Of a DNA stretch of 64,000 bases, positions 9,633-64,000 are shown piece after piece (positions within the stretch are counted from its first letter, which is position 1; the number at the start of each line of letters is the position of its first letter). The DNA lies in UHGV virus genome UHGV-1366603. One strand, given 5' to 3'. The position numbers and the translations under genes were made by a program. The notes beneath the pieces were generated by a model, which searched no databases, had not been told where the DNA came from, and was given only the letters and a program-made list of their open reading frames with translations. The DNA comes from a virus.

Positions 9633-10904
9633 ATGGCAAATTTCGCAAAAACTCGCGCCGCTCGTGAATCAATGGAAGCGGCCGATGAAGTAATCGACGG
9701 TATCAGCAACGTTGAACCGGCAGAAGAGAACCTGGACGTCCAGCTTGCGGACGTTGCATCTATCGACGGTCAGCTCGAACAGCTGGAAACCGACGGTGAA
9801 ACCCTGGCTGCCGATACCGAGCGTACTGAAGACGCTATCGAACAGGCGGAAGAAGCCGTTGCTAACGGTGAAGAAATGCCGGAAGAAGCGGTTGCCCTGC
9901 ATGAAGTGGCACAGGAATCCATCGCACGTCGTTGGAACCTGGAGCGTACTAAACTGGCTCGCGAATCCTATCGCCGTGGCCGTGGCATGACTGCTGCTGC
10001 GCAGGAAGGCTGGAAAGAAACCCTGAAAGGTCTTTACGAGCGTTTCATTCAGTTCTGTAAAGAAGTAATTGCGAAGATCAAAGACCTGAAACTGAAATAT
10101 TTCAACGTCGGTAAGACCGCACAGAAACGTGCGAAGAAATATCAGGAAATGATCCGCAAGCTGGGCAAACAAGATAAAGACAACATTTCTGGCGGCTTTA
10201 TCACCAAACTGTCCATCGAAGGTAAATTCGATGCTGCTGGCTCTATTGCCATTGCTAAAGAAGTGACCGCAGGTAAAGCTAAAGGTGCTATCAGTGCACT
10301 GGAAAAACAAGCTGGTGAAGCTGTGACTGCTGTTACCAAAGGTGACGATGACGCATTCAAAGCGATGCGTGGTGATCAGCCGGTTGAACTGTTTGGTAAA
10401 GCAGCGTCTAAACTGCATTCTCTGCCGAACTTTGAAAACGGCGATGCGTCTAAACTGCTGGCTCTGCCGGGCAACGCTTACGTTCAGGCTGGTACTAAAG
10501 AACTGGCTGGCGGCCACAAGTTCACCGCAATTGCGTTCATGAGCACCGGTGACGCTTCTGACGATAAAGAAGTGGCTACTCCGTCTGTTTCCGAAATGGC
10601 TGGCGCGGCATCTGCTCTGGAAGCGATCGGTAAAGGCTTCGAAGCTGTACTGAAAGATTTCCGTGCTTACGATTCTGAAATCGTGAAACTGCAACAGGCT
10701 GCTGAAAAAGCGTCCAACGCGCTGAACAACGAAAAAGACGAAAGTAAGTGGGAAGGACTGCGTAATGCACGTCAGGCCGCTGATCAGTCTGTGAAGAACT
10801 ACCAGACCCTGAACCGTGCCGTTAGCTATGTTGCTAACACCGTTATTAGCGGTCTGAACGGTTACCTGGGTGCTGGTATCGGCGCGTACAAAAAGTCTAA
10901 ATAA
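9633..10904 (+). CDS. abundant acidic-N-terminus protein, paralog A (423 aa); candidate head internal/scaffold-like virion protein
   Basis: Starts MANFAKTRAARESMEA, same as downstream paralog; strongly host-optimised codons (ctg/cgt/ggt/aac); long antisense shadow ORF. Confidence 0.85.
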   Translation: MANFAKTRAARESMEAADEVIDGISNVEPAEENLDVQLADVASIDGQLEQLETDGETLAADTERTEDAIEQAEEAVANGEEMPEEAVALHEVAQESIARRWNLERTKLARESYRRGRGMTAAAQEGWKETLKGLYERFIQFCKEVIAKIKDLKLKYFNVGKTAQKRAKKYQEMIRKLGKQDKDNISGGFITKLSIEGKFDAAGSIAIAKEVTAGKAKGAISALEKQAGEAVTAVTKGDDDAFKAMRGDQPVELFGKAASKLHSLPNFENGDASKLLALPGNAYVQAGTKELAGGHKFTAIAFMSTGDASDDKEVATPSVSEMAGAASALEAIGKGFEAVLKDFRAYDSEIVKLQQAAEKASNALNNEKDESKWEGLRNARQAADQSVKNYQTLNRAVSYVANTVISGLNGYLGAGIGAYKKSK

Positions 10905-10943: not shown

Positions 10944-10962
10944 GGGGAACGACGTGTTCCCC
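10944..10962 (+). other. intergenic hairpin GGGGAAC-GACGTG-TTCCCC between paralogs (weak terminator/processing site)
   Basis: Stem-loop seen in sequence; no strong T-run. Confidence 0.3.
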
Positions 10963-10980
10963 TTAGAGGAAAAGCTTAAA

Positions 10981-12243
10981 ATGGCAAATTTCGCAAAAAC
11001 TCGCGCCGCTCGTGAATCGATGGAAGCTACTGCTACTGTAGTTCCAGACGGCATCGAACTGCCAGCAGAATCTGTTGAAGGTACTCTGGCCGATATCGAA
11101 CATGATACCAAACCGATCGAAGCCCTGGACGCTGACGCTGAACTGCTGGCCGAAGACGGCGACGAAACTGATGCTCAACTGGATGTCCTGGATGAAGCTC
11201 AGGCCGCTGCCGACGGTGAAGGTGCTGGTGAAGACGGCGAAGAGCCGATGGACGCTGAAGAAGATATGCCGGACGACGCAGCGACTGCGCTGGACGTTGC
11301 TCAGGAATCTATCCGTTCTCGTTGGAACTTCGAACACCGTTCTTCCGTTGCACACGAATCCTACGGTTCTCGTAACCGTCGCCAGGTTGCTCGTGAATCC
11401 CTGTGGGAAGACATTAAAGCATTCCTGAAACGTATCTGGGAATGGCTGAAAGAACAAGGCCGTAAGATCAAAGATCGTTGGCTGAAATTCTCCAACCAGG
11501 GTAAATCCATCCAGGCTCGTTCTAAGAAATACGACGATGCTATTCGTAAACTGGGCAAACAGAAGAAAGATGAAATCTCTGGTGGCTTCATCAAGTCTCT
11601 GTCTATCGACGGTAAATTCGTTGGCGACGATCTGTCGCGCCTGAAGAATATCCTGAACCACGTCTCCACCTACTACAGTGGTAACGTTCAGAGCTTCCTG
11701 AACAACGGTACGGATATGGTTGGTAACGTCGTTAAAGGCGATGGTGCTAAAGTTGAGAAACTGAAAGCAGACTTCGCTGCTCTGGCTAAAGAAGACGTTA
11801 GCAAGTTCAAACTTGGTAACATGGCTCTGAAGATGGAGTACGACGAAGAAGGCGGATTTAGCTCCAGCTATGTGGAAGCTGAAAACCGTGCTGAAACCAA
11901 CGTGAAAACTCCGTCTGTTAGCGAACTGGCTAAGACCAATGCCTTCTTCAACGAAGTGGGTAAACAGATCGAGAAGAACGTTCTGGAATATCGTAAGACT
12001 GAACAGGCTCGCGAGAAATTCAGCCAGCAGATTGAGAAGCTGCTGAAAGAAATCGACAGCGTGAAGATCGACGAAAAACCGCAACTGACCGAATCTGTAC
12101 GTACCGCACGTCGTTACATCAACAGCATTAACCAGGCAGTGTCTCTGGGCGAGAAAGTTATTTCCTCTACTCAGAAACATCTGGCTGGCGGTCTGAACGG
12201 CTATATCTCCGCAGGTATCGCTGCTTACGAAAAATCTAAATAA
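10981..12243 (+). CDS. abundant acidic-N-terminus protein, paralog B (420 aa)
   Basis: Start set at MANFAKTRAARESMEA (track ORF begins upstream at 10954); shared N- and C-terminal motifs with paralog A (…GLNGY…AGI.AY.KSK). Confidence 0.85.
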   Translation: MANFAKTRAARESMEATATVVPDGIELPAESVEGTLADIEHDTKPIEALDADAELLAEDGDETDAQLDVLDEAQAAADGEGAGEDGEEPMDAEEDMPDDAATALDVAQESIRSRWNFEHRSSVAHESYGSRNRRQVARESLWEDIKAFLKRIWEWLKEQGRKIKDRWLKFSNQGKSIQARSKKYDDAIRKLGKQKKDEISGGFIKSLSIDGKFVGDDLSRLKNILNHVSTYYSGNVQSFLNNGTDMVGNVVKGDGAKVEKLKADFAALAKEDVSKFKLGNMALKMEYDEEGGFSSSYVEAENRAETNVKTPSVSELAKTNAFFNEVGKQIEKNVLEYRKTEQAREKFSQQIEKLLKEIDSVKIDEKPQLTESVRTARRYINSINQAVSLGEKVISSTQKHLAGGLNGYISAGIAAYEKSK

Positions 12244-12260: not shown

Positions 12261-12308
12261 GGAGAACCACCCTGTAATGGGGTGGTTCTCCCTTTTCTTT
12301 TTTTTTTC
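12261..12308 (+). terminator. intrinsic terminator
   Basis: GGAGAACCACCC-TGTAAT-GGGGTGGTTCTCC hairpin followed by long T-run. Confidence 0.9.
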
Positions 12309-12322
12309 GCATTAAAAATAAT

Positions 12323-12352
12323 CTCAGATAGATATTACCTTAGTGAGATTAC
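12323..12352 (+). promoter_or_regulatory. promoter-like motif copy 1 (CTCAGATAGATATTACCTTAGTGAGATTAC)
   Basis: 30-mer identical to 47177-47206; lies after terminator and 46 nt upstream of ATG. Confidence 0.55.
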
Positions 12353-12398
12353 GCTGTAATCATTTAACGACCTGTTTATTACGTTTAGGAGAATTATC

Positions 12399-13040
12399 AT
12401 GACACGTTACAATTTAGCCGACTTCTGCGATTGTGCCTTTTCTGTTGAAGGTGACAAACTTGTAATGGCTGCGCCAAACGCAAGAGTTTTATCGTTGTAT
12501 CAAGCCGAAGTTATTGCAATTTCGATTTGGTTGGCAAGGGCTATAGACGGCGGCTGTAAGGACCTTGATAAAGAAGTGTTGAAAGTCGGTCGTCGTGAAT
12601 TTGTGTATAAAGCAGAAATCCAGAACCGTTTACCAAAGACCTTTTTAAGCAGCTTGCTTAAAGATGTCAACACCCCAGTTGTCAGCCGAACATTTGACGG
12701 GGTGAAATATTACTCTTTTGAAGATTCGCACGTTGCTATCTGTGAAGGTGAGAATAAGTTTTTTACGACCGTTATCTACTTTCGTATTGCTGAACCTACG
12801 AAAGAAGAACTGGTTTGCAATACTGCGAACGATGTGGCCGTGATGCGTATGGACGATATCACCAGTGAACTATCTGGATTAAATGACATACCGCGTATTG
12901 TGGAGCGAGTCTTGGAAGGAGACGATTACTTTAAGTTGCTTCCGCTGGTAGCAAGCGAAGAAACAGAACAGGAAAGCGCTTTCATTCAGGTTAACCTTAC
13001 CGCTGCACAGGCGGTGGATCGTTTCTTCGAAGCTTTATAA
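12399..13040 (+). CDS. hypothetical protein (213 aa)
   Basis: ORF with TAGGAGAAT RBS downstream of promoter-like motif. Confidence 0.8.
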   Translation: MTRYNLADFCDCAFSVEGDKLVMAAPNARVLSLYQAEVIAISIWLARAIDGGCKDLDKEVLKVGRREFVYKAEIQNRLPKTFLSSLLKDVNTPVVSRTFDGVKYYSFEDSHVAICEGENKFFTTVIYFRIAEPTKEELVCNTANDVAVMRMDDITSELSGLNDIPRIVERVLEGDDYFKLLPLVASEETEQESAFIQVNLTAAQAVDRFFEAL

Positions 13041-20457: not shown

Positions 20458-20577
20458 ACTCGTAAACGCGTCTTAGACGTTGTTTTACACCTTAAGACGA
20501 TTAATGGTGTTTAAAAAATAAAAGGTCGTCAGAATGCGATACAGCGCGTTTTAGAGGGTGTTTTAATTAAAATATTT

Positions 20578-20610
20578 TCAGATATATATTACTTAGGTGA
20601 GAGAATTACG
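20578..20610 (+). promoter_or_regulatory. promoter-like motif (TCAGATATATATTACTTAGGTGAGAGAATTACG)
   Basis: Variant of the 12323/47177 motif, contains TATATTAC and GTGAGA; 39 nt upstream of ATG 20650. Confidence 0.5.
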
Positions 20611-20649
20611 TAATACTCATTTATCGAATACCTAATTAGGAGCTATATC

Positions 20650-26816: not shown

Positions 26817-26831
26817 TTTCTATTATTTTTT

Positions 26832-26856
26832 GGATAGATATTATCAAAGGGAGACT
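26832..26856 (+). promoter_or_regulatory. promoter-like motif (GGATAGATATTATCAAAGGGAGACT)
   Basis: Resembles AGATAGATATTAC core of other copies; after terminator. Confidence 0.4.
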
Positions 26857-26943
26857 GTCAGTTGGTTTAAAGGAGACTTTATGGAAAAATTACAGTTAAA
26901 ACTAAAGATATGTACCATTATTAAAACTTAATCTGGCCCCTAC

Positions 26944-27964: not shown

Positions 27965-29740
27965 GTGTTTAAAGATGCAATCAGAAAGCTTAAAGAGGAT
28001 GGCAAAATAGTACCCTTTAACCGAGCGATTGCGGAAGGTGTCGGTTATACACAGGCCAAAGACGGTATACACGAGCGTGTTCAGATTATCTTGAAACGTG
28101 AGCTGGATTATCATCCTGTTGATAATCCGCGTGTTCCTGAAGGGCTGGCTGTATTAGGCGTACGGTTAATGTCACCGTTTGAAACGTTCATCTATAAGCT
28201 GTCTCGTTCTGAGAGCAGCAGAATGGATAGACGTCGTGGCGTGATGTCCATTGCGAATACCGATGCGTATATGGTCATGTCAACATTCCGTATTCCAGGA
28301 GATTCTCGACCGATCTCAAGACCGATTAACTTACCCTTTATCCGTCGTGGCGGTTTAATGAACTATTACGGTACGACGTATCACGTTGCACCGGTTATTC
28401 ACCAGCCAGGTATCTGTCGCGAACACGGTGGGGTATTTGTTAACTTTGACTTTAAACGTAAAGCCTCGTTGAAATTCTGTAAGCAACCTGTCCGTGTGTT
28501 AGTCAACGGTAAAAAAGAGGAGCTATTCTTACCAGGCACCAAAAACCTGTTCAAAGCGAAGAACGCAACACATCCTGATACTGACGAGAAACCGTTAATG
28601 TATTGGTTGTTCGGACGTTACGGATTTAAAGAAGCGATTAAACGCTATACTGGTGTTGATGTAGAAATTTATCCGTCGTTTAAGATCCCAGAACTCGATC
28701 TCAACGAGAAAGTTGTAATCAGTTCCGGTGAATCGAAATATAACCGTTCGATAATGTACGCGGTTGTCGTACCCGCAGAAGCATTGCCGAACGTGGATAA
28801 AGTTGGTTGGGATCAAAACGAGCATTTGTTGCTGGCCGCAATTGCTGCGTTCTTCAAAGCCGCTCACTACTATTGCAGTAAACAATCTATTAAGAACGGT
28901 AACGTCACGCCGCTCCCGCCGCTGTTTACCGCAATTAATGAGTTAGCGATGGAAGACGATATTGCTAACCTGAACTCTGCTCCGATTTGGCGTGAGATTC
29001 TGGGAAGAAGTATCGTAGGACTAAAACCTTCCGATATTGAGTTAGCACACAGTATGGCGAAACACTATACTGAATGCGATCGCTACGTTAACTCAACGTT
29101 CCGTGCAGAACTGAAGATGACCGATCCTGACATTCCAGACGACATGGATATGTTTGATTTCTTCTGGTATGCAACGAAACTGATGGTACGTACCCGGTTG
29201 ACCAAACAGGGTGACATTCCGTCGATGTACGGAAAACGTTTAACCGTGACTGACTACTTACTGTTAGGTGACCGTGGGTTTACACCAACGGTAGCGGCTA
29301 TTCGTTTCCATCTGGGACAAACGGAGAATCGTTCGCCAGAATCCTGCGCGAATATGATTCGTAGCGCACTCAATAAAGAAATTGTCACGAGTCTGGTGTT
29401 GCGTAATATCACCGGTAACGGTGGTGTAAGCTATTTCAACGCATCAACAGAGTCCATGGTACTAGGAGTATCCACACACGCAATCAGTCAAACTGAAACG
29501 GAATCTAAACGTAACAGCAAAGGCGGTAAAACGGTTAACCTTAACGACCGTACGAAACATGCTTCTGCATCGCACCTAGAATGCGGTAACGTTTATTACA
29601 TTCCGAAGTCGTCCCCATTCAAATGGGGTGTCCTTAACCCGTACATGAAAACTAACCGTCAGTTAGTGATGGTCCGTAATCCAAAACTTGACGAGTTAAT
29701 CCAAGCAACCGAAGAAGACATTGCGAAGATTGGCCGTTAA
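27965..29740 (+). CDS. hypothetical protein (591 aa)
   Basis: ORF with AAGGAG RBS and apparent GTG start. Confidence 0.7.
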   Translation: MFKDAIRKLKEDGKIVPFNRAIAEGVGYTQAKDGIHERVQIILKRELDYHPVDNPRVPEGLAVLGVRLMSPFETFIYKLSRSESSRMDRRRGVMSIANTDAYMVMSTFRIPGDSRPISRPINLPFIRRGGLMNYYGTTYHVAPVIHQPGICREHGGVFVNFDFKRKASLKFCKQPVRVLVNGKKEELFLPGTKNLFKAKNATHPDTDEKPLMYWLFGRYGFKEAIKRYTGVDVEIYPSFKIPELDLNEKVVISSGESKYNRSIMYAVVVPAEALPNVDKVGWDQNEHLLLAAIAAFFKAAHYYCSKQSIKNGNVTPLPPLFTAINELAMEDDIANLNSAPIWREILGRSIVGLKPSDIELAHSMAKHYTECDRYVNSTFRAELKMTDPDIPDDMDMFDFFWYATKLMVRTRLTKQGDIPSMYGKRLTVTDYLLLGDRGFTPTVAAIRFHLGQTENRSPESCANMIRSALNKEIVTSLVLRNITGNGGVSYFNASTESMVLGVSTHAISQTETESKRNSKGGKTVNLNDRTKHASASHLECGNVYYIPKSSPFKWGVLNPYMKTNRQLVMVRNPKLDELIQATEEDIAKIGR

Positions 29741-29779: not shown

Positions 29780-31390
29780 ATGGCAAGCTACAGTGAAACT
29801 CGTGAATTTATCTTGAAAGTTTTTATGGCTAAACAGGATCAACTGTTGAACTATCTCGTCGACGCGATGAACGCGAAAGGGATAAAAGAAGATCCGTTTG
29901 TTAATGCAGCCTGCATTGTGGGTAACTGGTATCTGCAAAACCGTCGTCCTATTGACCAAACTAACGTTGCGGTTATCGAAACCTTTAAGGCAACGCTCTA
30001 TAGCCGTCTGTTAGGTTTAGGTCTGACCCCGTTGCAGCCGGACATTCATAGCGCGTTAGAGAAAGCGTTTGTGCTGGCGAATCAGCTTGCAGAAGAAGCC
30101 CGTCGTGCAGGGCAGGGTGGATTTGGTGTACGTACTGAACCGGTTAACTTCGGTATTCAGAATTCGCAGAATGCGCAACCAACTGCACCGATTCAGGGTT
30201 CTTCTGTACCGATGGCCAGCTATACTCCGGCCGGTGTAACAGTGCAACCTGTACAACCCGCTCCGGTATTCGGCGGTACTCCGCAACCTCAACCTCAGCC
30301 GCAAACGCAGCCTGCTATTATTCAGCCGACTGTTCCGCAGGAAGTGATGAATAAAAGCAAGCCTGTGGATATGAATAAGGAAACGATGGATGACATCATT
30401 CAACGTGCTAACCGTCCTCACCATGACATTTTGCGGGTAGAAATTGTGGAAGACTATTTAGATCACGAGCTGAAAGAAAAGATTCAGCAAAACGTTGTTT
30501 CGCCGAAAGAAGCTAACACACGCGTCAAGAATTCTGTGTATGCAGAACATCGTGACTGGGGTGATAAGGTTAGTGAACTGGTTGAAGATAACGACAAACA
30601 ATATTGCTCGTATGACGATGCGGGTATCATGGTGAAAGTCGAAAGCGAATATCGTCTGTATCCGATGGCACAGACTGAAACTTCTGCGGTGTATCTCCAG
30701 GAGTTTTATAGCTCGGTTCGCCAGATTATCGACGATCTCGATACCGTACGTGATATTGACGATATTGAAAAGCTGATGGAGCGTGTTTCTAACGACGTCT
30801 TCAGACTGCGTGACCTTGCACAGCGTCTGTTAATGTACTTCCTCACCAAATCTGATGAGAATGAAACGTATCGTAGCGAATGCTCAGCGTTTACTCGTCG
30901 TTTCATTGCAACATTAACCGTGCTGGTTCACAACGCGATCTCCGTGGCATCTGCTTACGGTAAAGACGTTCCGGGTACGAAATTCGTACAGTTGGAATGC
31001 TGCCTGGATGACATGACCTACTTTAAAGAGACAGTGTATGGTCGTACCATCGGTGAAAACGGCGTGAGCAAGTCTGCGGATTACTTCCGTGAAATGTTCC
31101 TGCTGATTGCGCGTTCTCTGCGTAAGCTGCACATTCGTCTGACCTGCGATAATAAAGCCATTGAACTGTCTCAGGTAACGTACACGATTTCTCTGCAAGC
31201 AGATTATCAATCCGCTAACGATCGTCATATCGTGGAAATCTCATCGTTTGGTAATAGCTTCGAACCGATTGTTTCAATCTACGAAGTCATTAACCAGAAA
31301 GCACCAGAAGCGTTCATTAAACTTAAGACCCCGTCTCACGTTTATTCGCTACTGAGCACCGGTGACGTTACTGCACCAGTTCGTTATTAA
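29780..31390 (+). CDS. hypothetical protein (536 aa) with Pro/Gln-rich linker
   Basis: TAGGAGAAT RBS; PQPQPQPQTQP linker. Confidence 0.8.
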   Translation: MASYSETREFILKVFMAKQDQLLNYLVDAMNAKGIKEDPFVNAACIVGNWYLQNRRPIDQTNVAVIETFKATLYSRLLGLGLTPLQPDIHSALEKAFVLANQLAEEARRAGQGGFGVRTEPVNFGIQNSQNAQPTAPIQGSSVPMASYTPAGVTVQPVQPAPVFGGTPQPQPQPQTQPAIIQPTVPQEVMNKSKPVDMNKETMDDIIQRANRPHHDILRVEIVEDYLDHELKEKIQQNVVSPKEANTRVKNSVYAEHRDWGDKVSELVEDNDKQYCSYDDAGIMVKVESEYRLYPMAQTETSAVYLQEFYSSVRQIIDDLDTVRDIDDIEKLMERVSNDVFRLRDLAQRLLMYFLTKSDENETYRSECSAFTRRFIATLTVLVHNAISVASAYGKDVPGTKFVQLECCLDDMTYFKETVYGRTIGENGVSKSADYFREMFLLIARSLRKLHIRLTCDNKAIELSQVTYTISLQADYQSANDRHIVEISSFGNSFEPIVSIYEVINQKAPEAFIKLKTPSHVYSLLSTGDVTAPVRY

Positions 31391-39693: not shown

Positions 39694-39735
39694 CCAACCT
39701 CTACCTTCGGGTAGAGGTTTTCTTCTTTTTATTTT
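39694..39735 (+). terminator. intrinsic terminator (UUCG tetraloop)
   Basis: AACCTCTACC-TTCG-GGTAGAGGTT then T-rich tail. Confidence 0.85.
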
Positions 39736-39743
39736 ACAATTTT

Positions 39744-39760
39744 TGATCATACTGTGAGAC
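39744..39760 (+). promoter_or_regulatory. promoter-like element with GTGAGA half-site (TGATCATACTGTGAGAC)
   Basis: After terminator, upstream of AAGGAGACTT RBS and ATG 39780; shares TGTGAGA with other copies. Confidence 0.35.
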
Positions 39761-47141: not shown

Positions 47142-47176
47142 CCCCTACCTTCGGGTAGGGGGTTATTTAATTTTTT
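47142..47176 (+). terminator. intrinsic terminator (UUCG tetraloop)
   Basis: CCCCTACC-TTCG-GGTAGGGG then T-run; same stem as terminator 46380. Confidence 0.85.
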
Positions 47177-47206
47177 CTCAGATAGATATTACCTTAGTGA
47201 GATTAC
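47177..47206 (+). promoter_or_regulatory. promoter-like motif copy 2 (CTCAGATAGATATTACCTTAGTGAGATTAC)
   Basis: Identical 30-mer to 12323-12352; same 46-nt spacing to ATG and similar leader. Confidence 0.55.
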
Positions 47207-47252
47207 ACAATAACCTCTTTACGACTTGTTCTACAGATTAGGATTAATTACC

Positions 47253-47612
47253 ATGACTTATAATCACAACTCTATTGTTTTAGCAAAACGTAAATTCGGT
47301 CTTCATCTTTCTTACGTGATTCGTCATTTGACAGCGAAAGACATTACACAGCGTGAACTTGCCCAGCTTGCGAAAGTTTCACAATCGGTTATTTCATCTA
47401 TTAAGAACGATCGTAGCGAACGCCTGAGTCTACCGATAATGATGAAGGTTGCTGATGCAGTTCGTCTGAAATACCAGATTACGTTTAATTCCATTAAAGG
47501 GCGTTGCTCAGTAACGGTTCACGTAGAGTCTGCGTTGGACTACGTTGCAAATACGTCCCTTAAACGTACCGCGAAGAATATTCGTTTTGTTACTAACAGC
47601 GCAACACACTAA
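47253..47612 (+). CDS. helix-turn-helix (XRE/Cro-like) DNA-binding protein (119 aa)
   Basis: HTH-like segment ITQRELAQLAKVSQSVISSIKN; ATG after TTAGGA RBS (track TTG 47226). Confidence 0.6.
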   Translation: MTYNHNSIVLAKRKFGLHLSYVIRHLTAKDITQRELAQLAKVSQSVISSIKNDRSERLSLPIMMKVADAVRLKYQITFNSIKGRCSVTVHVESALDYVANTSLKRTAKNIRFVTNSATH

Positions 47613-48330: not shown

Positions 48331-48358
48331 GGGAGCTTCGGCTCCCTTTTTCTTTTTA
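48331..48358 (+). terminator. intrinsic terminator (UUCG tetraloop)
   Basis: GGGAGC-TTCG-GCTCCC followed by T-run. Confidence 0.85.
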
Positions 48359-52170: not shown

Positions 52171-52217
52171 TTTCGATATAGCTTCAGCATTGTGTTGTTA
52201 ATGGTCTAAAAAATTTA

Positions 52218-52248
52218 AGATATATTTCATCTATGTGAGAATTCTCAC
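52218..52248 (+). promoter_or_regulatory. promoter-like element with perfect 14-bp palindrome GTGAGAATTCTCAC (52235-52248)
   Basis: AGATATAT… then TGTGAGAATTCTCAC; 24 nt upstream of ATG 52272. Confidence 0.45.
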
Positions 52249-52271
52249 TTAACTAAATGGAGTAATCTAAA

Positions 52272-56211: not shown

Positions 56212-56410
56212 CGGATATATCATTTCAGCAATCGTTTCAACTGCGTTGATTGTAGCGATGTTGATGTTCTACGTTAAGACGTCTGACGAATCACGTAGAG
56301 ACTCCCTTTATCGTGAATGTATGTCAGGCACTACTGTAGATAATCCACGCTACGCTGAATTAGTAATGGCGTGTACGGAATACGCTAATCGAATGGGAGG
56401 AGGGAAATGA
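56198..56410 (+). CDS. small membrane-anchored protein (70 aa), paralog of next gene
   Basis: N-terminal hydrophobic helix; LYREC…AELVMAC motif shared with 56407 gene. Confidence 0.6.
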   Translation: MKINDGYIISAIVSTALIVAMLMFYVKTSDESRRDSLYRECMSGTTVDNPRYAELVMACTEYANRMGGGK

Positions 56411-61099: not shown

Positions 61100-61121
61100 T
61101 AACCCGCTTATAAAAAATATT

Positions 61122-61150
61122 GGGGGGGGGTAAGCTACTCCCCCGATCTT
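61122..61150 (+). other. G9 homopolymer tract plus weak hairpin (possible weak terminator)
   Basis: TGGGGGGGGG TAAGCTACT CCCCC then GATCTTT. Confidence 0.3.
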
Positions 61151-61176
61151 TAGCTCCCGATAGAGAACTTAATATC

Positions 61177-64000
61177 ATGGCGAAAGCGGTAAAGAAAATA
61201 CGATTGCATAATCTTAGGCCGTATACCGGTGATATCGGTGAAGGCGTTTTACTTTTCTCCAAGGATGAGAAAGATTATAAGTTACCAGTCCGTGAGGTTA
61301 TTGCAGATATTGACACCGTACGTAATGCGGTGGCTGATGCACAAACAGCAGCAGCGCAATCACAAGAAGCTGCAACTCAGGCTACACAAGCAAAGAATTT
61401 AGCAGAAACAGCAAAACAACAAACTGACACCGTTGCGGCTACGGTTGCTCAACAAGCACAAACCGTAACAGAAAAAGCAACGGAAGTCGGTACAAAACAC
61501 ACTGAAGTGTTAGCCGCGAAAACGGCGGTAGATACCCAGGTTGTGTCCGTTAATGAGAAAGCGCAAGCGGTAGCGGCAAGTGAGGCCAACGTCACGCAAG
61601 CAGAGACTACTGTTACGAAGAAAGCAGAAGCCGTTGCGACACAAGCCGGTCAAGTTGAACAGTCTCTTACGGCAGTTAACGAAGCTGTCGCGTCGGTAGA
61701 GTCGTCAAAAGCCTCTGTAGAAGCTACAGCAACGCAAGTTACCTCGGACAAAGAAACCGCAGAGAATGCGGCAACCCGTTCTGAGGCAGCCGCTAAGCGA
61801 GCAGAAGAAATTGTTGCACAAGGTACTGTTGATGCAACAACGTCCAGTAAAGGTATCGTTAAACTTAATAATACCTTAACCAGTGACTCGGTTACTGAAG
61901 CTGCTACTCCGTCAACGGTTAAGCAGTTAAATGATGATTTGCAGTTAAAAGCAAACCGTCACAACCCAACCTTTACCGGTACGGTAAAAGCACCAACCCC
62001 TGCTGCGGATTCTAACGACACGAGTGTCTCAACGACTGCATGGGTACGACAAGCGATTGCTGAATTAGTGGACTCTTCTCCCGAGACGTTAGATACGTTA
62101 TCAGAAATTGCAGCCGCGTTAGGAAACGATCCTAACTTTGCGACAACGATAACGAATCAGCTCGCGGGTAAACAGCCGTTAAGTCCGTTACTGACAGCGA
62201 TTGCCGCAGTCACCACCGCTGCAAACAAACTCCCTTACTTTACCGGTAGTAATCAGGTAGGGTTAGCGGATTTCACCTCGACCGCACGCGATTTATTAGC
62301 AAAAGGGTCGACGGCCGATATCATTAGCTTCCTGGGTTTGAAAACTACCGTCGATAAAGCTGCGGGGGCGATGCAGCGCAATTCTAATGGTGCAGATATT
62401 CCTGACAAAGCCACCTTCGCGAAGAATATTGGATTGTCAGCAGAGACGTATCTGAAGTTTAATGGGGAGATGGCAGTAGATGCAGATATCAACACCTTCG
62501 GCCCAGTCGAAGCGTTTATGGGTGTTTGGTCTAAAGCCACGTCTACGAATGCAACAATTGCAAAGAACTTCCCGGAAGATGATGCAGTTGGTTACTTAGA
62601 AGTATTCAAAGCAGGTAACTACAGCGGAAGTCAACGTTTTACCATACGTAACGGTAACGTCTATACTCGTCGTTTAACAGGAACCTGGAACGGTACTAAC
62701 GGCCCTTGGTCACCCTGGAGAATGACAACCACCGCGAACCGTCCGCTCTCTACCACTATTGACCTTAACACCTTAGGTGGTGTTGAACACATGGGTCAGT
62801 GGCGTAACTCCAGTTCTTCTCTTGCGACGTTCGATCGTCATTATCCCGAAGAAGGTGGTAATGCTCAAGGTGTGTTAGAAGTAATGGAAGGTGGTCTCTA
62901 CGGACGTATGCAACGTTACACCACTCGTCGTGGTACGATGTATATCCGTGGGTTGACTGCGACTTGGGATGCGTCTAATCCGCAGTGGGAAGACTGGATT
63001 CAAGTTGGGTATCAGGTAGACGGTGCCTACTATAAGGGTAGCTTTAATAACTTAACTAAACCCGGTCGTTTTAGTGTTACCGGTGAGGCTACTGACGGAC
63101 CGTTAACAGGGCCTTCTGGTGAAACTTTGTTAGGTGTCTGTGAAGTCACCCTGCGCTTAGACGGTGTAGGTGTCGAACAAAATTACACCACTTACGGTAC
63201 AGGTGCTATTTATAAAGGTCGTAAGTTCCATCGTATCCGTACGGGGAATGTCTGGAGCGAGTGGCGTGAAGTTTATACGTCTAGTTCATTAGCGATGCTT
63301 TTAGGAATCGGTGGAGTTGCAGCTAAGGTCGATCCGTTGGACTGGCAAACCTACGACTTCGTTCCTGGACAGATGTTAACGACACCGTTGAACACCATGA
63401 AAAACATTCCTGCGGGAATGGATTGGGGTGTGATCAACGGTAACTTAGTTAACATCCTTGTAGGTCCGTCTGACGACACTGGTACCGGCCGCAGTATGCT
63501 GGTTTGGCGTAGCACGGTGTCTACTGCCAACTATCGCTTCTTTGCGGTACGTATCGCCGGTGAGAAGGGTAGTCGTACGATTACACCACGCCAGATGCCT
63601 GTATTGAACGCAGCGCACACCTGGGCAGAGAAACAGACCTTTGCAAAAGGGTTAGCAGGTGAGTTAACAGGCAATGCTTCAACCGCCACTAAATTAAAGA
63701 CGGCACGTAGAATTGGTGGGGTCGCCTTCGACGGTAGCGGCGATGTTAACCTCCCAGGTGTTAACCAACAAGGTAATCAAAACACCACGGGTAACGCCGC
63801 GACAGCCACTAAACTTCAAACTGCCAGAAATATTAACGGTGTGAGATTCGATGGTTCTGCTGACATCAATATCAACACCCTGGTGGGTCGTGGTCGGGTT
63901 ACCGCTCTAACCGGTTCAAACAAAGGTACACCTGGTATTCAAATGTACGAAGTTTACAATAACGGTTATCCAACCGCTTATGGTAACTTACTGCATTTGG
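61177..64000 (+). CDS. tail fibre protein, 3'-truncated at window edge
   Basis: Not in ORF track (no stop in window); Ala/Thr/Gln-rich coiled-coil, SSKGIVKLNN…ATPSTVKQLND and NPTFTGTVKAPTPAADSNDTSVSTTAWVRQAI tail-fibre motifs, two tail-fibre repeats near 63673-63870. Confidence 0.85.
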   Translation, partial: MAKAVKKIRLHNLRPYTGDIGEGVLLFSKDEKDYKLPVREVIADIDTVRNAVADAQTAAAQSQEAATQATQAKNLAETAKQQTDTVAATVAQQAQTVTEKATEVGTKHTEVLAAKTAVDTQVVSVNEKAQAVAASEANVTQAETTVTKKAEAVATQAGQVEQSLTAVNEAVASVESSKASVEATATQVTSDKETAENAATRSEAAAKRAEEIVAQGTVDATTSSKGIVKLNNTLTSDSVTEAATPSTVKQLNDDLQLKANRHNPTFTGTVKAPTPAADSNDTSVSTTAWVRQAIAELVDSSPETLDTLSEIAAALGNDPNFATTITNQLAGKQPLSPLLTAIAAVTTAANKLPYFTGSNQVGLADFTSTARDLLAKGSTADIISFLGLKTTVDKAAGAMQRNSNGADIPDKATFAKNIGLSAETYLKFNGEMAVDADINTFGPVEAFMGVWSKATSTNATIAKNFPEDDAVGYLEVFKAGNYSGSQRFTIRNGNVYTRRLTGTWNGTNGPWSPWRMTTTANRPLSTTIDLNTLGGVEHMGQWRNSSSSLATFDRHYPEEGGNAQGVLEVMEGGLYGRMQRYTTRRGTMYIRGLTATWDASNPQWEDWIQVGYQVDGAYYKGSFNNLTKPGRFSVTGEATDGPLTGPSGETLLGVCEVTLRLDGVGVEQNYTTYGTGAIYKGRKFHRIRTGNVWSEWREVYTSSSLAMLLGIGGVAAKVDPLDWQTYDFVPGQMLTTPLNTMKNIPAGMDWGVINGNLVNILVGPSDDTGTGRSMLVWRSTVSTANYRFFAVRIAGEKGSRTITPRQMPVLNAAHTWAEKQTFAKGLAGELTGNASTATKLKTARRIGGVAFDGSGDVNLPGVNQQGNQNTTGNAATATKLQTARNINGVRFDGSADININTLVGRGRVTALTGSNKGTPGIQMYEVYNNGYPTAYGNLLHL
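63673..63870 (+). repeat. two tandem phage tail-fibre repeats (protein level)
   Basis: NASTATKLKTARRIGGVAFDGSGDVNL and NAATATKLQTARNINGVRFDGSADINI. Confidence 0.7.

Follow-up and report, generated by a model that had tools for sequence, protein, structure and literature searches.

A 30-nucleotide block, CTCAGATAGATATTACCTTAGTGAGATTAC, occurs as exact copies at 12323-12352 and 47177-47206 on the + strand of a 64,000-nucleotide viral sequence (UHGV virus genome UHGV-1366603; the whole stretch is called the window below), and we take both, with good confidence, for early promoters in a nucleus-forming jumbo phage of the SPN3US type, most likely read by the multisubunit RNA polymerase packaged in the virion (vRNAP). 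The finding is a further example of the known virion-polymerase early promoter of phiKZ-related jumbo phages, an expected control element in such a genome. Two less familiar aspects are modestly novel: a covarying hairpin that lies flush with the predicted +1, and signs of conversion and gene swapping at the promoter cassettes.

Genomic setting of the repeated block

Judged by its sequence, the window is from an uncultivated SPN3US/phiEaH2-like jumbo phage, a relative of Salmonella phage SPN3US and Erwinia phage phiEaH2. At the nucleotide level it is only ~73-75% similar to these two phages, and this in structural genes alone; closer relatives are known solely as metagenomic contigs of 150-225 kb, and a metagenome scan with a 28-mer added two further relatives. 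Genes recognised in the window encode the major head protein, tandem phiKZ-type internal head proteins, a DnaB-like helicase and thymidylate kinase. Polymerase subunits were not recognised by a Pfam search, and a search against solved structures identified 27965-29740 as a homologue of PHIKZ123 (gp123), one subunit of the structurally solved phiKZ non-virion RNA polymerase (nvRNAP; 7OGP_E, E=1.9e-17). The vRNAP genes of the window's own phage lie outside the 64-kb window and the presence of this enzyme was judged from relatives: the closest of these, 078609, 113438 and 029126, encode a vRNAP subunit homologue with 86% identity to the SPN3US protein. Both multisubunit polymerases have thus been traced, the non-virion enzyme in the window and the virion enzyme in its relatives.

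Several further features of the window were recorded. The gene at 29780-31390 is a homologue (phrog_8185) of the SPN3US gene located just downstream of the nvRNAP subunit gene, whose product, gp78, is reported to be essential and possibly regulatory (PMC5105663). The internal head protein genes at 9633-10904 and 10954-12243 are tandem paralogues (PF12699) with 98% identity across 49 nt at the 5′ end and with similar 3′ ends too (repeat families D9 and D12). The stretch 61100-64000 had been suspected of being gene-free; this was rejected, as one long ORF (61178-64000, + strand), with an alanine/glutamine-rich, coiled-coil-like N-terminus, runs off the window end and is missing from the ORF list only because it is open there. 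Scans of the window against Rfam at gathering thresholds and for tRNAs gave no match.

The original prediction described an identical 30-mer at 12323 and 47177 with an ATG 46 nt past it in both copies, and this is exactly what is found, the start codons being at 12399 and 47253. A search for further copies of the block within 3 mismatches found none in the window, and 100 dinucleotide shuffles likewise gave 0 (0 expected by chance). The leaders had also been described as similar, in agreement with a repeat finder that stretches the similarity to 12311-12376 and 47165-47230 (66 nt, 80% identity, family D5); this similarity is largely a class-wide property of the promoter leaders. The features of the two cassettes and of the related sites are as follows.

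12261..12307, + strand: intrinsic terminator of copy 1, a 14-bp GC-rich stem (12261-12291) and a T-run, from the terminator scan and the sequence; it closes the internal-head-protein gene pair and forms the upstream half of a terminator-promoter composite
12311..12344, + strand: copy 1 promoter, -34 to -1, ATTAAAAATAATCTC AGATAGATATTAC CTTAGT, from the consensus match and class-wide conservation
12345, + strand: predicted transcription start of copy 1, the G six bases past ATATTAC, placed by the class and the published AR9 rule
12347..12361, + strand: copy 1 leader hairpin GATTAC-gct-GTAATC, 6 bp, from its minimum free energy (MFE, -4.0) and class covariation; 8 bp and flush with +1 in relatives
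12364..12376, + strand: copy 1 post-hairpin leader box TTTAACGACCTGTT (class pattern TTWAC / CGAC)
12387..12401, + strand: copy 1 Shine-Dalgarno sequence (AGGAG) and start codon (ATG) of an early-type ORF, 213 aa long and of unknown function; 5′ UTR predicted at 54 nt
47142..47164, + strand: intrinsic terminator of copy 2, after the thymidylate kinase gene, a GC-rich hairpin and T-run (47142-47161)
47165..47198, + strand: copy 2 promoter, -34 to -1, ATTTAATTTTTTCTC AGATAGATATTAC CTTAGT, from the exact 30-mer and the footprint in 4 IMG/VR relatives
47199..47217, + strand: copy 2 predicted +1 G (47199) and degraded hairpin GAG-A-TTA cacaa TAA-C-CTC, MFE -1.1; intact in relatives
47220..47230, + strand: copy 2 post-hairpin leader box TACGACTTGTT
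47240..47612, + strand: copy 2 Shine-Dalgarno AGGA and Cro/C1-type HTH gene (47253-47612, 119 aa), its position kept across SPN3US-like phages
20565..20620, + strand: third full class member, predicted G+1 at 20599, with leader inverted repeat GAGaATTACGTAATaCTC, ahead of a 47-aa ORF
26817..26851, + strand: ATTATC-type variant (GGATAGATATTATCAAAGG-G+1), predicted start 26851, with orthologous SPN3US sites at 72487 and 72685
52203..52250, + strand: marginal variant with ATTTCAT replacing ATATTAC, then the palindrome GTGAGAATTCTCAC; membership doubtful, with a minus-strand covariance match (E=0.26) to the palindrome

Searched with the degenerate consensus GATANATATTAYNNNNGKGAGA and up to 2 mismatches allowed, the window gave five matches (12327, 20581, 26833, 47181 and 52219), all intergenic and on the + strand, and 0 on the - strand, against 0.02 expected, a test that is partly circular because the consensus was built from the same window sites. 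Weaker variants had been proposed at 20578, 26832, 39744 and 52218. The first and second are sound, having no mismatch to GATANATATTAYNNNNGKGAGA. Site 52218 is marginal, with 2 mismatches that both fall inside the -10-like ATATTAC core, and site 39744 was rejected as a member, since 7 of the 11 specified positions upstream of its GTGAGA mismatch. On the sequence, the window therefore holds four clear class sites, 12323, 47177, 20578 and 26832. A perfect 14-nt palindrome, GTGAGAATTCTCAC, occupies 52235-52248, at the predicted start of the marginal site, and is also present in the closest relative (L001). The further claim that all sites lie just after terminators applies to 12323, 47177, 26832 and 39744 but not to 20578, where the terminator is ~130 nt away, or to 52218, as a terminator scan of the 101-nt intergenic region that holds it found none.

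Conservation of the element across jumbo phages

Recognition of these sites as a promoter class, as originally predicted, is upheld by a strand-specific, intergenic and clade-wide motif in the window, in SPN3US and in IMG/VR. When the same consensus was applied to the whole SPN3US genome with up to 2 mismatches, 14 matches were obtained on the + strand, 13 of them intergenic, and 0 on the - strand. Circularity was removed by use of a neutral 7-mer seed, AT[AG]TTA[CT], on this genome, which is 4.5% non-coding. On the + strand 20 of the 63 occurrences of the seed are intergenic, and 19 of these 20 carry the full motif and a G at N6+1, while on the - strand only 2 of 42 are intergenic and neither has the motif. 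The class thus comprises about 20 sites in SPN3US, and the intergenic enrichment proposed as a check on the prediction is found, on the + strand.

In IMG/VR a pattern scan found 51 sites; nearly all are in jumbo-phage contigs (100-248 kb), sites in one contig always point the same way, and a start codon follows 44-64 nt downstream (median predicted 5′ UTR, 51). Conservation in this set extends to positions that were outside the search pattern, with A at -34 in 51/51 sites, T at -32 in 48/51, A at -29 in 50/51, T at -23 in 50/51, T at -21 in 49/51 and C at -20 in 47/51. These near-invariant positions indicate an element of ~38 bp, composed of A at -34, an A/T tract from -33 to -24, TyTC AGATA(T/G)ATATTAC from -23 to -7, a 6-nt spacer and G(+1) within GAGA; in the window it begins at about 12311 and 47165, and not at 12323 and 47177 as first placed. 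A T-run is present upstream of 33 of the 51 sites. The footprint of copy 2 in four IMG/VR relatives consists of a retained promoter block, with the terminator stem and the leader diverged.

The genes behind the class sites are also telling. Variant sites of the ATTATC type precede nvRNAP genes, both in the window (26832) and in SPN3US, where the sites at 28970, 15615 and 72487/72685 stand before the nvRNAP genes at 29014, 15768/17704 and 72738/73754; the subunit assignments for both SPN3US polymerases are from published work (PMC5105663). The window site of this type (26817..26851) is at the head of the operon to which the nvRNAP subunit homologue (27965-29740) belongs. No class site was found in SPN3US ahead of virion genes, whether vRNAP genes (212357, 39365 and 189763), head genes or tail genes. 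The other genes downstream of class sites in the window encode small hypothetical proteins and the HTH protein. A 16-codon ORF (26881-26931, MEKLQLKLKICTIIKT) with its own Shine-Dalgarno sequence also follows the 26832 promoter, ahead of the first nvRNAP operon gene; it could encode a leader peptide or have arisen by chance.

Candidate polymerase

The original prediction had also likened the core to the early promoter of phiKZ, and a direct search of the phiKZ genome with TATATTAC confirmed that core and spacing are the same. In the first 50 kb of phiKZ this sequence occurs 7 times on the + strand and 0 times on the - strand; all 7 sites are intergenic, all 7 are followed by N6-G, and one is upstream of the nuclear-shell gene. 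The spacing in the window, ATATTAC-CTTAGT-G, is identical to that in phiKZ and in AR9, for which the early promoter consensus is AAATATATATTAT-(6N)-G+1 (PMC5312081). The G at N6+1 is conserved at 19/20 SPN3US sites, all window sites and 7/7 phiKZ sites, these being sequence positions whose status as 5′ ends is predicted. According to a review, an upstream motif of such a kind is associated with the early operons of every RNAP-encoding jumbo phage (PMC7598289), and the early promoters of phiKZ and 201phi2-1 are conserved in the -10, -20 and -30 regions (PMC11512511). By analogy with phiKZ and AR9, vRNAP is probably the reader of the motif.

An assignment by analogy is not a direct one, and the motif might instead be a promoter of the non-virion phage polymerase, used in middle or late infection, or of the host sigma-70 RNA polymerase. 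Some nvRNAP genes of 201phi2-1 are not behind early promoters (PMC11512511), and the ATTATC subtype, which has no GAGA/hairpin leader, could indicate a second class. Still, we regard this reading as improbable, given that ATATTAC-N6-G is the early (vRNAP) signature of phiKZ and AR9, that the motif is absent before virion genes, and that it precedes the nvRNAP genes, whose first transcription cannot come from their own product. A host promoter fares no better: a search for sigma-70 promoters (TTGACA-like and TATAAT-like hexamers 16-18 nt apart) found 16 pairs against 20.5 expected and 20 against 20.6, hence no enrichment, and 0 at the cassettes. For the later phage classes a better candidate than the early-type element is available in a second promoter-like motif, TTTAC-N14-17-TTATG(T/C).

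This second motif lies just after terminators, at 48355, 51794 and 53610 in the window (and at 39725-39760) and at 94188, 100136, 109924 and 187584 in SPN3US. On the + strand it is intergenic in 6 of 23 cases in SPN3US and in 3 of 9 in the window; on the - strand in 0. Site 39744 fits TTTAC-N14-17-TTATG better than it fits the early class. Late promoters of phiKZ carry TATG+1, and its middle promoters have a weak AT-rich motif at -24 (PMC7598289). The second motif resembles the middle (TAC) and late (TATG) elements of phiKZ and may mark the promoters of the non-virion polymerase. Within the early-type element itself, ATTAC and ATTATC sites could differ in timing and form two classes instead of one.

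The leader hairpin

At most ATTAC-type sites an inverted repeat starts from the predicted +1, with the form GAGAnnnn, a loop of 3-6 nt and nnnnTCTY (7-8 bp), and is followed by TTAAC, TTTAC or TAATC, often by CGAC, and then by the Shine-Dalgarno sequence. The arms vary between sites with pairing kept, as in GATTAC/GTAATC, GAGTTA/TAACTC and GATGAG/CTCATC. Covariation was measured in 46 distinct class sites with a covariance-model alignment, which replaced a gapless MAFFT alignment in which the 3′ arms were out of register. In this alignment, which is fitted to the hairpin model and includes orthologous sites that are not independent, 91.4% of cells are paired compared to 77.3% in shuffles (0/500 shuffles reached the observed value), double-sided changes number 50 compared to 20.9 (0/500), and the covariation score is 0.298 compared to 0.120 in shuffles, with slid controls all at or below 0.074. 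An independent folding test of 51 sites gave a mean MFE for +1 to +30 of -5.5 kcal/mol, compared to -1.9 for shuffles (p=6.5e-9), and nucleotide +1 or +2, counted from the predicted 5′ end, is paired in 41/51 sites (26.6 expected). The pairing partner of G+1 is U in 33 sites and C in 13, and internal pairs include 13 G-U, modestly more than the 7 A-C; this excess leans towards selection on the RNA instead of the DNA.

The window's own sites have weak hairpins, with -4.0 (copy 1, 6 bp), -1.1 (copy 2) and -1.5 kcal/mol, so that the structure may be dispensable. Relatives have intact stems with differing loops (gct, atc, att and aca). In the window phage only, four substitutions clustered within 9 nt at 47207-47215 (GCTGTAATC to ACAATAACC) break the copy 2 hairpin; the rest of the copy 2 intergenic region is almost identical to that of the closest relative.

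The same dyads could be read in another way, with the repeated block serving mainly as the operator of a Cro/C1-type HTH protein that binds dyad DNA, autoregulates and co-regulates the gene at 12399. The HTH gene lies directly downstream of copy 2, a position conserved in 61 phage records, and two dyads can be proposed: TCTCA-N17-TGAGA, which occurs only at the two copies, and the GATTAC-N3-GTAATC palindrome, with ATTAC..GTAAT palindromes at 12348, 20605 and 22000. A dyad operator should be independent of orientation, though, and the motif is present at ~20 sites per genome, before unrelated genes and always co-oriented; its conserved part is asymmetric, and copy 2 of the window has no palindrome. 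The change of arm sequence with pairing kept is the signature of a structure and not of a sequence-specific protein site. We therefore give an operator only a slim chance as the main function of the block. The HTH protein could nonetheless act on the promoters as well, for example in shutting off early transcription.

Origin of the two copies

Copy 1 follows the internal head protein gene pair and has its SPN3US counterpart at 56295, and copy 2 lies between the thymidylate kinase and HTH genes with its counterpart at 94240. As each copy has an orthologue at the same place in SPN3US, the two promoters are older than the divergence of the lineages, and the original description of a duplicated cassette does not hold in that respect. 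What does hold is that the extra similarity is real in a sub-lineage, where it takes the form of a conversion tract. Copy 1 orthologues in five related genomes are 82-96% identical to one another. In the window, 095954 and 078609, copy 2 shares 71-77% identity with copy 1 from every one of the five related genomes, and just 57-63% with its positional orthologues in 113438 and 029126, where the SPN3US-type hairpin GAGAGTTA..TAACTC has been retained. The copy-1-like tract in copy 2 opens with the spacer CCTTAG, takes in the hairpin and closes with TTTACGACTTGTT, ~50 nt in all, and both of its flanks are copy-2-specific. On this sequence pattern, the tract is best read as a ~50-nt gene conversion of site 2 by site-1-type sequence in the sub-lineage, not as a fresh duplication. 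The identity of the 30-mer at the two sites would then be explained by both being near the class consensus, together with this conversion.

The first gene after copy 1 (12399-13040) is hypervariable: its identity is 98% to one relative and 38% to two more. A further two, 078609 (L013) and ERZ808044 NODE-22 (L079), have an unrelated 58-aa ORF in its place, with the flanking genes 81-99% identical. This swap, the closer identity of copy 2 to copy 1 than to its own orthologues, and the likeness of the terminator-promoter composites to the PeSLs (promoter-early stem-loop cassettes) of T4-type phages (PMC2839356) would suit a recent duplication or a mobile regulatory cassette of the PeSL type, in which identity stems from copying and not from selection. 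We consider this highly improbable as the account of the two copies. The SPN3US orthologues at 56295 and 94240 belong to the same promoter class, so that neither site is new; the copy-1-like part of copy 2 is only ~50 nt with flanks of its own; and conservation of the block at dozens of unrelated sites means that selection explains most of the identity. Even if true, such an account would complement the promoter explanation, not replace it.

Working model and implications

Under the early promoter reading, a multisubunit RNA polymerase carried in the virion, entering the cell along with the DNA, would recognise the motif, with starts at 12345 and 47199 and a 54-nt leader from each. Such a leader would begin with an AU-rich hairpin of 7-8 bp, the first transcribed bases forming its 5′ arm, and continue with the TTWAC/CGAC box and the Shine-Dalgarno site. 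As each promoter sits directly behind an intrinsic terminator, it would open an insulated early operon. The injected polymerase would first transcribe the genes of the non-virion polymerase, a model fitted by the presence of the motif ahead of nvRNAP genes and its absence before virion genes. The flush 5′ hairpin may protect early mRNAs against decay that depends on a free 5′ end. A literature search for transcription-start, timing or polymerase-dependence data on SPN3US-like phages found none, and the identity of the polymerase, the exact start, the early timing and the role of the hairpin are what we infer.

A bolder reading, which we think conceivable but unlikely, is that early transcripts of SPN3US-like phages carry a 5′ module that tags them as early mRNA: the hairpin flush with +1 on GAGA and, at a set spacing from the ribosome-binding site, the TTWAC/CGAC box. 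The module might shield the mRNA from 5′ decay, or a phage factor might recognise it and thereby translate the mRNA selectively or let it leave the early-infection vesicle; the terminator-promoter-leader units might in addition act as recombination modules, a counterpart of PeSLs for a phage-polymerase promoter, that convert one another and swap the first downstream gene.

The promoter model from -34 to +1, with predicted starts at 12345, 47199, 20599 and 26851, makes early operons annotatable from sequence in the whole SPN3US/phiEaH2 clade. That ATATTAC-N6-G is common to SPN3US-like phages, phiKZ and AR9 points to a mode of promoter recognition by vRNAP that has been kept in jumbo-phage lineages very far apart. 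Promoter and leader are compact and may be of use in engineering SPN3US-like phages, and the covarying 5′ hairpin offers a handle on how early mRNAs survive and are used in nucleus-forming infections.

Comparison with known systems

In core and spacing the class is like the early promoters of phiKZ, which share TATATTAC-N6-G, strand specificity, intergenic position and placement before small genes of unknown function, as well as conservation reaching -20 and -30; phages of both types have a vRNAP and an nvRNAP. The upstream half differs, being tttaAAcAG / TTAAGAT in phiKZ and ATTAAAAAtaaTyTCAGATA in the SPN3US-like clade. This clade also has the invariant transcribed GAGA and usually a hairpin flush with +1, whereas such a hairpin is seen in 2/7 phiKZ sites, and its starts are predicted from sequence whereas those of phiKZ have been mapped experimentally. 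Early promoters of Bacillus phage AR9 are alike in the -10-like element (ATATATTAT versus ATATATTAC) and in the 6 nt to the initiating G (PMC5312081). AR9 differs in having uracil-containing DNA, no phage nucleus and a different host, and a conserved leader hairpin has not been reported for it.

Coliphage N4 also has early promoters that are read by an injected virion polymerase and carry a short hairpin (5-8 bp, loop 3-4 nt), but its enzyme is a single-subunit polymerase that reads an extruded DNA hairpin upstream of the start. A DNA-hairpin promoter of the N4 type was considered for the present sites and rejected, since the hairpin of the window clade is downstream of the -10-like element and begins at the predicted +1, it tolerates G-U pairs, and the polymerase is multisubunit. 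At the RNA level, a 5′-terminal stem-loop of the ompA type blocks RppH and 5′-end-dependent attack by RNase E. The leaders described here are similar to such stabilising stem-loops in that 0-2 unpaired nucleotides precede the hairpin at the predicted 5′ end; they differ in having AU-rich, short stems, in a place relative to the 5′ end that is set by the predicted start, and in a protective role that is putative.

Finally, the cassettes resemble the PeSLs of T4-type phages, in which a stem-loop terminator is joined to a strong early promoter and the unit recurs round the genome beside small non-essential genes (PMC2839356). A terminator lies directly upstream of 12323, 47177 and 26832, making each of these sites a composite of this kind, and a handful of genomes show signs that cassettes have exchanged sequence, in the conversion tract, and that a gene at the cassette edge has been replaced. 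The promoter of a PeSL is sigma-70-like and used by the host polymerase, whereas the motif of the window is without sigma-70 hexamers.
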